Source of the DNA: a virus | Taxonomy: Duplodnaviria; Caudoviricetes | DNA: 64,000 bases | Virus record (IMG/VR): IMGVR_UViG_3300035180_001680 | Direction: 5' to 3' (one strand) | Shown: positions 9,116 through 55,167 of the stretch, one piece after another | Layout: every line of letters begins with the position of its first letter | Position numbering within the stretch: the first letter of the stretch is position 1 | Made by a program: the position numbers and the translations under genes | The notes under the pieces: model-generated | What the model was told of the DNA's origin: nothing | Seen by the model: only the letters and a program-made list of their open reading frames with translations | The model's database searches: none

Positions 9116-10150
9116 ATGGAAGATATTAACAATAATTTTATTGAGCGAATTAAAAATAGCTCCCTGATACGGAAAGATGGAAAAATTAATTCTCCAGCTA
9201 TAAAAAGTGTGCGTAATACACAATTAATTCAAGAAATAATACAAAGTACTAACTACCTTAACAACGATATTTCTTTTTCTCAGAGATGGTGGCATATACA
9301 AAACGGAAAAAATGTTCCTACATGCACAGAATGTAATAAAGAATTGATGTGGAATACCCGCTTATGTAAGTATCTTCGCTTTTGTAGTCAAAAATGTGCT
9401 GTAACTTCTGAGGAGGCATCGGACCGAACCAGTAAACATTTTATGGGACAAAAATTGACAAAAGAACAAGTACAAAAAAGAAAACAAAAAAGAAAACAAA
9501 ACGGATATTATGTGAACAGAGAAAAAACGATTGAATTATTAAGTCAACAAAAACAAGGAGAAAAAAATCCTCAATATGGAAAAACACCATGGAATTTTGG
9601 ATTGTGTGGGGAATTAAATCCTAACTTCGGAAAAAGGCGACCTGGAACTGGTTTAAAGGGAGAAAAAAATCCTCAATATGGGAAATCCCCATCCAAACAA
9701 GCAGGGAGGGGGATTAATGGAAAATTTAACAATTTACACTTTCGTAGTAGTTTAGAAATGTTATATTTAATGTATTGGTATGAAAACAATGTTAATGTTG
9801 TCAGTGCTGAAAACATTAAGTTTCGGGTCAAGTATATTAATTCCAGTGGAGTTAAACGAACATATTCACCTGATTTTTTTATAAATGAAACTAACACGTT
9901 GGTGGAAATTAAACCAGAAAATCTTCACACAAACGTAGAAGTATTGCAAAAATTTAATACCCTAAAAGAAACTCATACACAATTGGTTTGTGAGTTGGTG
10001 GGGTTTAAACAAATTAGTAATTTTATTCAAACAATTATTAAACAAAACAAGATTGATTATTATATAAAATCTGGTATATTAGAAATTTCTTTATTTCAAC
10101 TTGAAAGGCTAAAACACAATTATGGTGACATCATTAGAGCAACTCTTTAA
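9116..10150 (+). mobile_element. Free-standing homing endonuclease: Zn-binding motif, NUMOD3-like repeats, PD-(D/E)xK nuclease
   Basis: CTEC..FCSQKC, 2x GEKNPQYGK, FRSSLE..YSPDF..LVEIKP; lies inside the NTase gene. Confidence 0.8.
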
Positions 10151-42139: not shown

Positions 42140-42784
42140 CTAATCAATCCCAACGATTTTTTCAATTTCAACCCGAACGCGTTCGGCTGCGACACTGGTG
42201 TATGCTTCGTTGAACATTTCTCGACAAGCCTTTAAAGATTTCGGGTCTGGAGTAAATCCACGGCCAACAAATCTGTAAAAACGGATTACCCTCAAGTAGT
42301 CTTCTTTGATACGGTCTTTGGGTTTTCCAACAAAACGTAACGTTCTCGTTTTAATATCGTCCATTCCCATACCAGTTGGGTCAATAAGCTCCATCGTTTT
42401 GGTGTTAATGTATAATGCGTTTACGGTAAAATCGCGACGGTGAGCATCATCATCGATTGTTCCCAATTCAACTTCCGCGTGGCGACCATCACATACCACA
42501 TCTTTTCGGAAATTGCTGACTTCAACGGTATAACTACTGAAATGGACGTTAAGCACAAAGTGTGCGACACCAGTCAAAGACACTTCAAATCCACCGTCTT
42601 CAAACAGTTCGATTAACCGTTTCATTGGGATATCCGTAACGATGTCGTAATCATTTGGAGTTTTTTCCATCAACAAATCACGAGTCGCTCCCCCCACAAC
42701 GTAATTGTTGTCAGAAAATGCGTTTAGTACTGTAATAATTGGGAATAACTTAATTGGGCACGTTCTTTTAAAATCAATTTTCAT
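42140..42784 (-). CDS. cca: Class II tRNA nucleotidyltransferase (CCA-adding/poly(A) polymerase family), short form
   Basis: VVGGATRD..DYDI, RRDFTVNALY, EDYLRVIRFYRF, ERV. Confidence 0.85.
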   Translation of the reverse strand: MKIDFKRTCPIKLFPIITVLNAFSDNNYVVGGATRDLLMEKTPNDYDIVTDIPMKRLIELFEDGGFEVSLTGVAHFVLNVHFSSYTVEVSNFRKDVVCDGRHAEVELGTIDDDAHRRDFTVNALYINTKTMELIDPTGMGMDDIKTRTLRFVGKPKDRIKEDYLRVIRFYRFVGRGFTPDPKSLKACREMFNEAYTSVAAERVRVEIEKIVGID

Positions 42785-43100
42785 CAAAGATCCTTTTTGC
42801 AGCAAAATCCAGTGTTGATAATAAAACTGGTAATGTAGTATCAAGAACACGTATACCTTGTTGTAACCAGTGTAGTATCGTGTGTTGTTCGTAAGATGTT
42901 GTGGGTATTGGTTTAATTCGTTCTGTTAATAAAAGTTGTTGATCCATATCAAGAGACGCGTTAGTCTCTTTGAGAACACAACCAATAAAGGCCCGTGCTG
43001 CCCAAGGATGGGCTTCAACGATTGTTTCTACAAAACCGGGTGTGAACGTAAGAATTTTACGCCCTGGTGTTTTTGATTTTCGTAATGTGTGGGTTTTCAT
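42774..43100 (-). CDS. Hypothetical protein
   Basis: ORF. Confidence 0.5.
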   Translation of the reverse strand: MKTHTLRKSKTPGRKILTFTPGFVETIVEAHPWAARAFIGCVLKETNASLDMDQQLLLTERIKPIPTTSYEQHTILHWLQQGIRVLDTTLPVLLSTLDFAAKRIFDEN

Positions 43101-48720: not shown

Positions 48721-48804
48721 TGGTCCACCCGGAGGGATTCGAACCCTCATAGTCAAAGACGCGAGATTAAAAGTCTCGTACCGTACCAGTTCGGTGTCGG
48801 ATGG
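48721..48804 (-). tRNA. tRNA-Lys(TTT) with 13-nt variable arm
   Basis: CCATCCG/CGGGTGG acceptor, loop CTTTTAA, variable arm CGTCTTTGACTAT, encoded CCA. Confidence 0.85.
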
Positions 48805-48967: not shown

Positions 48968-48982
48968 ATTAAATTCCACTTG

Positions 48983-49067
48983 CTCCGGTCCGAGGAATCG
49001 AACCTCGCCTCCTTTCGGAGCCTTCGCATTAACAGTGCGAGACCTTCACCAAGCCAGTCCGACCGGA
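48983..49067 (-). tRNA. tRNA-Asn(GTT) with 16-nt variable arm
   Basis: Loop CTGTTAA, variable stem CTCC-GAAA-GGAG, G73, no encoded CCA. Confidence 0.85.
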
Positions 49068-53084: not shown

Positions 53085-53168
53085 CGGAAGACGGAGGAAT
53101 CGGACCCCACCCCTTGCGGAGCGTTTCGTTTAGCAAACGAACCTGAACACCAGAACAGTTCATCTTCC
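53085..53168 (-). tRNA. tRNA-Ser(GCT)
   Basis: Loop TTGCTAA, long variable arm, G73. Confidence 0.8.
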
Positions 53169-53598: not shown

Positions 53599-53678
53599 TG
53601 GCGGGTGTGAAGGGAATTGAACCCTCCTGATTTTCCGAAGTGACAGTCCGGTGACCACGCCATGCAGTCCCCACACCC
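53599..53678 (-). tRNA. tRNA-Asp(GTC)
   Basis: Loop CTGTCAC, G73, encoded CCA. Confidence 0.82.
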
Positions 53679-53773: not shown

Positions 53774-53858
53774 TGGTACCACCGGTTGGAATCGAACCAA
53801 CTTTGAGGTTTCCCTCCAGGATTATCGGTCCTGTGCCTAACCTATCGGCCACAGTGGT
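53774..53858 (-). tRNA. tRNA-Ile(GAT) with 15-nt variable arm and C33
   Basis: CAGGA-CCGATAA-TCCTG, variable stem GAGG-GAAA-CCTC, A73, encoded CCA. Confidence 0.82.
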
Positions 53859-53864
53859 GTTGTT

Positions 53865-53940
53865 TGGTAGGACCAACCGGGTTCGAACCGATGACAGTCT
53901 GCTTGTAGGGCAGATACTCTACCAACTGAGCTATGGTCCC
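53865..53940 (-). tRNA. tRNA-Val(TAC)
   Basis: TCTGC-CCTACAA-GCAGA, encoded CCA. Confidence 0.9.
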
Positions 53941-55009: not shown

Positions 55010-55048
55010 AAAACGAAAAACCCAGTCTCTTTTGGAAACTGGGTTTTT
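55010..55048 (-). terminator. Attenuator terminator of tRNA array 2
   Basis: AAAAACCCAGT..ACTGGGTTTTTCGTTTT; 5' arm complementary to GGCTGGGT at the end of the leader ORF. Confidence 0.85.
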
Positions 55049-55071
55049 CTTTTTAAGAATTTAGCTTTATG

Positions 55072-55167
55072 CTATACCCAGCCTCCAGACATAATAATAT
55101 CACTGTCGCGACGTACTTGGCGTCGGCGAATGATACTAATACTCTGTTGTTGTCTGGTTACGAACAT
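55072..55167 (-). CDS. Putative leader peptide 2, MFVTRQQQSISIIRRRQVRRDSDIIMSGGWV
   Basis: 31-codon ORF with AAGGAG RBS between promoter and terminator; codons match the downstream tRNAs. Confidence 0.85.
   Translation of the reverse strand: MFVTRQQQSISIIRRRQVRRDSDIIMSGGWV

Follow-up and report, generated by a model that had tools for sequence, protein, structure and literature searches.

Genetic context of the tRNA-Ile(GAU) gene

The 64,000-nucleotide stretch of viral DNA analysed here, which we refer to as the window, carries on its minus strand, at positions 53774-53858, an 85-nt tRNA-Ile(GAU) gene with an encoded CCA end that is detected by ARAGORN and by the Rfam RF00005 model and is recovered in the minimum-free-energy fold. 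A tRNA-Val(UAC) gene identified by ARAGORN and by its sequence lies 6 nt upstream on the same strand (53865-53940), and its anticodon loop, CCUACAA, does have the C33 that an earlier note on this DNA had attributed to it. Directly upstream of the tRNA array that holds the tRNA-Ile gene is a leader region (55010-55167, minus strand) recognizable from its sequence, which comprises a Shine-Dalgarno sequence, a 31-codon ORF MFVTRQQQSISIIRRRQVRRDSDIIMSGGWV (55167-55072) and a terminator-like hairpin with a U run (~55048-55010). The same note had described a leader with five Ile codons, and we find these (ATT, ATC, ATT, ATT, ATT) in the ORF at 55167-55072, together with Gln, Arg, Val and Asp codons. 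The Gln, Ile, Arg, Val and Asp codons of the leader correspond to tRNAs encoded downstream in the array.

The window corresponds to positions 65549-129548, read on the reverse strand, of a 178,796-bp IMG/VR viral contig, which has a G+C content of 36.5% and a completeness of 52% as estimated by CheckV. Its large terminase subunit shares about 50% identity with its counterparts in the Xanthomonas jumbo phages XacN1 and Xoo-sp13, and genes for a tail sheath, a portal, RIIA and a protein of the CCA-adding-enzyme family are also present. We assign the contig to an uncultured XacN1-like jumbo phage, of which it represents a piece of about 179 kb. Three uncultured phages were retrieved as relatives with the large terminase subunit as the probe, and none were found with RIIA as the probe.

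ARAGORN detects 42 tRNA genes on the contig, 19 of which are within the window. The ORF of the CCA-adding enzyme/poly(A) polymerase family is located at 42140-42850 of the window on the minus strand (PF01743, 102 bits), and its presence agrees with the missing encoded CCA in several phage tRNAs. A search for a phage-encoded synthetase with PF00133 gave no match in the 52%-complete fragment searched. The contig also contains an amber-suppressor-type tRNA with anticodon CUA (G000:46568-46641), which has counterparts in XacN1 and in other relatives. We considered and rejected TAG recoding, and we assume the standard code because ORF coverage already reaches 83% under it and recoding adds little.

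The codons read by the tRNA are frequent: AUU and AUC together account for 52.6 per 1000 codons (5.3%) in the phage's long ORFs, AUU is the fourth most frequent phage codon, and the gene at 53774-53858 is the sole GAU tRNA on the contig.

Architecture of the tRNA-Ile(GAU) gene

The acceptor stem ACCACUG/CGGUGGU forms 7 bp, including one G-U pair, and is followed by U8 and G9. The D arm (53835-53849), as drawn by ARAGORN, consists of a 3-bp stem GCC/GGC and the loop GAUAGGUUA, in which we assign A14, U15, G18 G19, U20 and U20a. The anticodon stem CAGGA/UCCUG closes the loop CCGAUAA (53822-53828), which contains C32, A37 and A38, with C33 at 53827 and the GAU anticodon at 53826-53824. The variable region totals 15 nt and is made up of a 12-nt hairpin, GAGG-GAAA-CCUC (53805-53816), with 4 bp and a GNRA tetraloop, present both in the ARAGORN prediction and in the minimum-free-energy fold, and of an unpaired 3' tail, AAA (53802-53804, ARAGORN drawing), whose final A stands in place of position 48. 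The T arm, GUUGG-UUCGAUU-CCAAC, is standard, and the discriminator A73 and the encoded CCA end occupy 53774-53777.

The RF00005 covariance score of the gene is 49.4 bits, above the gathering score of 29. Its minimum-free-energy fold is the cloverleaf including the variable hairpin, and not the alternative fold devoid of the arm that the earlier note had named as the outcome speaking against its proposal. The 7-bp acceptor stem, the 5-bp T stem, the 7-nt anticodon loop, U8, A14, G18G19 and the T loop UUCGAUU are all as in a canonical cloverleaf, whereas C33 breaks the U33 rule of canonical tRNAs. The variable region exceeds 10 nt and forms a stem-loop, as in class-II tRNAs, whereas the GAU anticodon lies outside the class-II repertoire of Leu, Ser, Tyr or Sec anticodons. 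We conclude that this is a real tRNA gene. ARAGORN, RF00005 and the sequence itself concur with its first description as a tRNA-Ile(GAU) with a long variable arm, C33, A73 and CCA; the D arm had moreover been called Leu/Ser-type, which holds for its 3-bp stem but not for its loop, where the Leu-type signature is lacking.

Conservation of the variable-arm hairpin

We compared the region with contigs from four sediment and microbial-mat metagenomes, one of which may be the contig's own source. Strain variants differ by about 2% in the flanks and by a single base within the tRNA, an A to G change at 53804 in the unpaired tail that is found in three other metagenomes. A separate contig, present in all four metagenomes, aligns exactly to 53774-53858 with 17 differences, no gaps and unrelated flanks, and we therefore interpret it as a second, 80%-identical, 85-nt copy of the gene from another genome.

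The bases of this second copy were compared at the central 25 positions. Over this stretch, the anticodon loop CCGAUAA is unchanged, the variable stem shows two compensatory double changes (A-U to U-A and G-C to A-U) and the tetraloop GAAA is replaced with UACG, one stable type for another. These compensatory changes and the swap of stable tetraloops indicate that the hairpin has been kept as a hairpin. The variable stems of the Cys and Asn orthologues of XacN1, Xoo-sp13 and the contig also differ from one another with their pairing kept. We interpret the hairpin of the tRNA-Ile as a maintained structural element, as the covariation suggests; the covariation tells only that a broken hairpin harms, not that having one helps. 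We also considered an intron or a mobile insert in the variable loop and rejected it, since the extra segment measures only 12 nt and amounts to a simple hairpin, which the second copy preserves as such.

Searches for other copies and ancestry of the tRNA body

The second copy in the raw assemblies is the only other instance of this build that we found, and no second long-armed tRNA-Ile(GAU) of the same build was detected in 50,697 phage records or in IMG/VR. Blastn of the gene against the 50,697 phage records returned only partial matches with a coverage of at most 45%, which correspond to the T arm and 3' acceptor of tRNA-Ile, tRNA-Tyr, tRNA-Phe and tRNA-Arg genes. An exact word made of the anticodon arm and the variable arm had no match in IMG/VR, and the word rebuilt for the second copy was absent from IMG/VR and gave three chance matches devoid of tRNAs in the metagenome collection. 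A degenerate pattern matched one IMG/VR locus (L002), which we discarded as a chance match that is not a tRNA, and a looser pattern yielded 13 IMG/VR matches, none of which is a comparable tRNA. The candidate L135 was rejected: its acceptor stem is badly paired, and it lies 11 nt from the start of the retrieved locus.

An Ile stem-loop pattern had 17 matches in IMG/VR, of which only L122 is long. This 88-nt tRNA (L122:1813-1900, IMGVR_UViG_3300036832_001376) has a GAU anticodon on a typical Ser body, with a GGAGGCG acceptor, a 5-bp variable stem in the ARAGORN drawing and G73. We rejected it as an instance of the same build, as its body is of the Ser type with G73 and its anticodon differs from Ser GCU by a single base; the gene may have mutated, or it may encode a missense tRNA that inserts Ser.

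When the hairpin is removed from the comparison, the T5-like tRNA-Ile is the best match among ~490 phage tRNAs, with 60 of 73 positions identical, all others reaching at most 53. With the anticodon loop and the variable region masked out, a T5-like tRNA-Ile and a tRNA-Leu of RsoM2USA share the top score, and several tRNA-Leu rank among the nearest bodies. In view of this tie, we make no claim of descent from a tRNA-Ile by simple insertion. The likeness to the T5-like tRNA-Ile lies in the anticodon loop, the D loop and the T arm.

Over the full length, the closest relative of the tRNA (56 of 84 positions) has a CAU anticodon and belongs to the related phage G003. This 88-nt tRNA (L096:1487-1574, minus strand) shares the GCC/GGC D stem, has A73 and forms its variable hairpin from GAC-GAAA-GUC; it could be a Met tRNA or a lysidine-type Ile tRNA with a long arm.

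Long-armed tRNAs with class-I anticodons in large phages

According to the textbook rule, long variable arms in bacteria are confined to Leu, Ser, Tyr and Sec tRNAs. The contig encodes at least eight tRNAs of 80 nt or more, and those of 80-87 nt include Cys(GCA), Glu(UUC), Asn(GUU) (86 nt, 48982-49067), Lys(CUU), Lys(UUU) (84 nt, 48721-48804), Ala(UGC) and one Asp(GUC) (80 nt, 53599-53678), as annotated with ARAGORN; several of these long tRNAs have a GAAA-capped variable hairpin. Long Gly, Asn, Glu, Cys, Gln and CAU tRNAs occur in two of the three uncultured relatives examined, and tRNA-Leu of 75-76 nt likewise in two.

Long arms on anticodons other than Leu, Ser or Tyr, for which the earlier note had proposed a survey, are found in these relatives and in cultured phages alike. 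XacN1 has long tRNAs for Lys(CUU) (89 nt), Gly (86 nt), Thr (91 nt), Cys (89 nt) and Asn (89 nt), Xoo-sp13 for Cys (89 nt) and Asn (87 nt) and RsoM2USA for Pro (89 nt), and a T5-like coliphage combines an 86-nt tRNA-Asn with a short tRNA-Leu. GenBank labels the long-armed tRNA genes of the cultured phages by their anticodon, and the paper describing XacN1 calls its tRNAs 'canonical' and leaves the arm unmentioned (PMC5852040).

The arms share a common geometry, with at most one 5' nucleotide, a stem of 3-4 bp, a tetraloop that is usually of the GAAA type and a 3-4-nt 3' tail, and the long-armed tRNAs have a D stem of 3 or 4 bp and an enlarged D loop. The class-I long arms resemble the arm of the clade's tRNA-Tyr and differ from those of its tRNA-Leu (4-5 bp, with a 1-2-nt tail ending in U) and of its tRNA-Ser (5-7 bp, with a 1-nt tail). 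The idea of a repeated design, in which a class-I anticodon is set on a class-II scaffold, stands as far as recurrence is concerned, in the contig as well as in related and unrelated phages, but a Leu, Ser or Tyr body with a swapped anticodon, as this wording suggests, is not supported.

The converse exchange also occurs, as tRNA-Leu of 75-77 nt with short variable loops are present in the contig, its relatives and the T5-like coliphage (G000:37712-37788; L090:8364-8438; L097:5781-5936 and 9296-9370; L144:3051-3127, minus strand). The contig's Leu(UAG) is just 77 nt long.

We also observed several other unusual tRNA-like genes. Outside the window, a 93-nt tRNA-like gene with a UAU anticodon (Ile AUA; L005:1600-1692, corresponding to G000:39600-39692) lacks G18G19 and combines a variable hairpin of 5 bp with an unusual T loop, AGCGUUA; it was reported by ARAGORN only at a lowered threshold and scores 29.3 bits with RF00005 against a threshold of 29. 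With this long-armed gene and the tRNA-Ile(GAU) gene, both Ile-type anticodons of the contig are carried by long-armed bodies. Within the window, a tRNA-Ser(GCU)-like gene missed by ARAGORN (53086-53168, minus strand) matches the Rfam tRNA-Sec model weakly (36.7 bits) and looks like an 8/4-type tRNA with a longer acceptor and a 4-bp T stem, a form known from phages. Finally, a repeated phage element in which ARAGORN calls no tRNA (L131, L133 (two copies), L137, L138 and L140) is composed of a tRNA-Leu-like 5' half, GGUGGCGGAAUUGGUAGACGC, a non-canonical middle with ACCGAUAAU and then a normal T arm.

C33 is a common trait of phage tRNA-Ile(GAU)

U33 is nearly invariant in tRNAs by the textbook, and C33 may lower decoding efficiency through loss of the N3-H of the U-turn. 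Cultured XacN1 and a T5-like coliphage have the identical CCGAUAA loop in a tRNA-Ile(GAU) of ordinary length, and C33 is found in 12 of the 26 distinct phage tRNA-Ile(GAU) that we collected. A base other than U at position 33 occurs in 31 of 487 distinct phage tRNAs collected, 12 of the 31 being tRNA-Ile(GAU), and the next commonest cases are Pro(CGG), Val(UAC) and Val(CAC). The T5-like tRNA-Lys(UUU) has C33 too.

An Ile stem-loop pattern allowing C or U at base 33 had C33 in 10 of 17 viral matches versus 5 of 32 matches in cellular genomes (185,579 bacterial and archaeal genomes; Fisher p = 0.003), an enrichment that is only indicative because the stem context of the pattern is atypical of cellular tRNA-Ile. 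Two of the five cellular C33 matches sit in dense tRNA arrays. C33 recurs in at least four unrelated phage groups; it is not peculiar to the tRNA studied here but a common trait of phage tRNA-Ile(GAU). C33 also occurs in a tRNA-Pro(CGG) of the contig (G000:61294-61369), and such exceptions are repeated in RsoM2USA (Val UAC and Pro CGG) and in the relative G003 (Pro CGG).

Amino-acid identity

The tRNA has an A1-U72 pair, as in E. coli tRNA-Ile. Strong IleRS determinants are the anticodon and the discriminator A73 (PMC9976931), and the tRNA presents G34, A35, U36 and A73 along with A37, which is available for t6A, and A38. The minor Ile determinants of E. coli, C4-G69, U12-A23 and C29-G41, are absent, the corresponding pairs being A4-U69, C12-G23 and G29-C41.

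The other long-armed tRNAs of the clade are informative in this respect. Of 16 long-armed class-I tRNAs, 14 carry the discriminator that matches their anticodon, a rate similar to that of normal-length tRNAs (156/173): U73 is found in all long Cys and Gly tRNAs, and G73 in Gln and in two of three Asn tRNAs. Acceptor signatures fit the anticodon as well (U1-A72 in Gln, C1-G72 in Pro and GCGGG in Gly). Because the discriminators follow the anticodon, we interpret the long-armed tRNAs as apparent true isoacceptors rather than anticodon-swapped Leu, Ser or Tyr tRNAs.

We considered each of these three bodies for the tRNA-Ile itself. A Tyr body with a swapped anticodon was rejected, as TyrRS needs U35 and the tRNA has A35, and so was a Ser body, since the tRNA has a 4-bp variable stem, a 3-nt tail and A73, compared with 5-7 bp, a 1-nt tail and G73 or U73 in the Ser type. 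The determinants of E. coli LeuRS are A73, G18G19, A20a and the A15-U48 pair (PMC9976931). A15, GG-N-A20a and U48 are present in 23 of 23 long tRNA-Leu of the clade, whereas the tRNA has U15, U20a and A48, and it falls short of tRNA-Leu identity despite A73 and G18G19. The loop shared with ordinary phage tRNA-Ile(GAU) and, on the side of function, the high use of AUU and AUC, the absence of another GAU tRNA from the contig and the five AUY codons of the leader also point to Ile; the missing minor determinants and the masked body, which comes no nearer to Ile than to Leu tRNAs, speak against it. Taken at the level of sequence, the tRNA is most likely Ile-accepting and charged by the host IleRS, and A73 and the 3-bp D stem leave some room for LeuRS.

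Function of the reshaped tRNA

Our data suggest that the gene probably encodes a working Ile tRNA with a selected extra hairpin. The tRNA would serve as an elongator that reads AUU and AUC and is charged with isoleucine by the host IleRS, and it departs from an ordinary tRNA-Ile by a GNRA-capped hairpin of 12 nt with which the variable loop begins, by a D stem of 3 instead of 4 bp and by C33. It is part of a wider habit of large phages, which set Tyr-like arms on Ile, Asn, Cys, Lys, Gly, Thr, Glu, Gln and Pro tRNAs and to keep the identity marks of each.

As for the purpose of these changes, the reshaped lower half of the molecule, comprising C33 and the arm, could make the tRNA hard to cut for host defence or toxin nucleases that attack tRNAs. 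With a different base where the cut is made, a D stem reduced in length and an arm that sticks out of that region, such a nuclease might plausibly no longer fit and IleRS would stay undisturbed, and phage translation of the frequent AUU codons could continue while the host tRNA-Ile is under attack. A bacterial toxin that grips the D and anticodon stems makes its cut in E. coli tRNA-Ile(GAU) precisely at the C32-U33 step (PMC11724271), the T5 tRNA-Lys has been shown experimentally to escape PARIS AriB via an altered anticodon stem-loop (PMC11464382) and the general hypothesis that phage tRNAs are altered to evade host nucleases has been published (PMC10264068). We purely infer this purpose for C33 and the extra arm and put it forward tentatively. 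It is also possible, if somewhat doubtful, that the arm, the short D stem and C33 together represent a deliberate, family-wide reshaping directed against anticodon nucleases and tRNA-directed defences, or a self-marking of phage tRNAs for a phage factor. Such a reshaping would extend over Ile, Asn, Cys, Lys, Gly, Thr, Glu, Gln and Pro tRNAs, and synthetases that read the anticodon along with the acceptor end would still charge them correctly.

The hairpin and C33 could instead be neutral passengers on a functional tRNA-Ile, acquired through slippage insertion or tRNA-gene recombination and tolerated because IleRS, EF-Tu and the ribosome leave that side of the molecule untouched, with no adaptive role. 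The existence of natural class-II tRNAs, which tells that the translation apparatus copes with such arms, is consistent with this explanation, as are the Cys and Asn tRNAs, whose RAS14 forms at orthologous positions measure 75-76 nt where those of XacN1 and Xoo-sp13 are long, and the two short tRNA-Ile carried by the related phage G002. Nevertheless, we regard neutrality as unlikely in light of the compensatory changes and the tetraloop swap in the second copy, of the Cys and Asn orthologues whose stems differ yet stay paired and of the enrichment of C33 in viral over cellular matches, along with its recurrence in at least four unrelated phage groups.

Another explanation keeps the tRNA functional but changes its product: LeuRS would accept the body and ignore the anticodon, and Leu would be inserted at AUU and AUC codons, in parallel with the nematode nev-tRNAs. 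The long variable arm, the 3-bp D stem, A73 and G18G19 would suit such a missense tRNA, masking of the loop brings several tRNA-Leu into the group of nearest bodies, E. coli LeuRS requires A73 plus hinge or tertiary elements and can do without the anticodon and the arm (PMC9976931), and there is a precedent in the Leu-charged nev-tRNA-Ile(UAU) and nev-tRNA-Gly(CCC) of nematodes (PMC3333845, PMC4300185). We nonetheless consider Leu insertion quite improbable. The A15-U48 pair and A20a kept throughout the 23 long tRNA-Leu of the clade are missing here, the anticodon loop is that of genuine phage tRNA-Ile, the sister long-armed tRNAs with U73 or G73 and acceptor signatures of their own cannot be Leu bodies, and 5.3% of all phage codons would be affected.

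A non-decoding role, as a decaying pseudogene or a tRNA-shaped RNA acting as a nuclease decoy or a regulator, to which the violation of the near-universal U33 rule and the clearly aberrant tRNA-like genes of the same contig (such as the 93-nt UAU gene lacking G18G19) might point, is highly improbable here: no stem of the gene is disrupted, U8, A14, G18G19, CCA and the T loop UUCGAUU are in place, the general tRNA model gives 49.4 bits, strain variants and a diverged copy with compensatory changes preserve the gene, and it provides the only GAU tRNA for a phage whose fourth commonest codon is AUU.

In summary, the tRNA-Ile(GAU) described here belongs to a known but under-described kind, the long-armed phage tRNAs. 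Large phages routinely break the textbook rules on long arms and on U33 and keep the identity marks of their tRNAs, and public annotations are silent about it. If the working tRNA-Ile proposed here is correct, a class-II-type arm and C33 are acceptable to IleRS and the ribosome on a tRNA in heavy use, which would be useful for tRNA engineering. If the reshaping protects the tRNA, the principle of nuclease-proof phage tRNAs would extend from point changes to changes of whole arms, and a change of body plan would constitute a second route of counter-defence at the tRNA level, beside single-base changes of the anticodon stem-loop. The gene, which is probably functional, offers a clean and testable case of tRNA reshaping in phages.

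Comparison with known tRNA systems

The ordinary tRNA-Ile(GAU) of the T5-like Epseptimavirus vB_EcoS-26175I (MK907267.1, 57194-57269) and of XacN1 (AP018399.1, 46609-46684) share the CCGAUAA loop, including C33, and A73 with the long-armed tRNA, and the T5-like tRNA-Ile also has an identical T arm, GUUGG-UUCGAUU-CCAAC, and an identical D-loop core, AUAGGUUA. Both are 76 nt long, with a 4-5-nt variable loop and a 4-bp D stem, unlike the long-armed tRNA, whose acceptor stem is unrelated to theirs. The T5-like tRNA-Ile possesses all three minor Ile determinants (C4-G69, U12-A23 and C29-G41), whereas the long-armed tRNA has none of them; the XacN1 tRNA-Ile has U12-A23 and C29-G41, but A4-U69 as in the long-armed tRNA. 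The long-armed tRNAs of the cultured phages XacN1, Xoo-sp13 and RsoM2USA and of the T5-like phage have the same design, with the identity marks cognate to their anticodons, and none of them is a tRNA-Ile.

Nematode nev-tRNAs (PMC3333845, PMC4300185) likewise put a long arm on Ile and Gly anticodons, but they are eukaryotic, have UAU or CCC anticodons and are charged with Leu in vitro, whereas the phage tRNA is devoid of the bacterial Leu hinge determinants. We also rejected an allo-tRNA reading: allo-tRNAs and selC* tRNA-Cys (PMC5389517) require 8/4 or 9/3 branches and are mostly of Ser identity (G73 or U73), whereas the phage tRNA has a 7/5 branch and A73. The class-II tRNA-Tyr of Serratia phage BF (KY630187.1, 315603-315687) differs in its GUA anticodon, which contains U35, and in its D arm and acceptor stem, which are unrelated, but it has the same length of 85 nt, the same arm geometry, T stem and A73, and its arm is built, like that of the tRNA-Ile(GAU), from a short stem, a tetraloop and a 3-nt tail.
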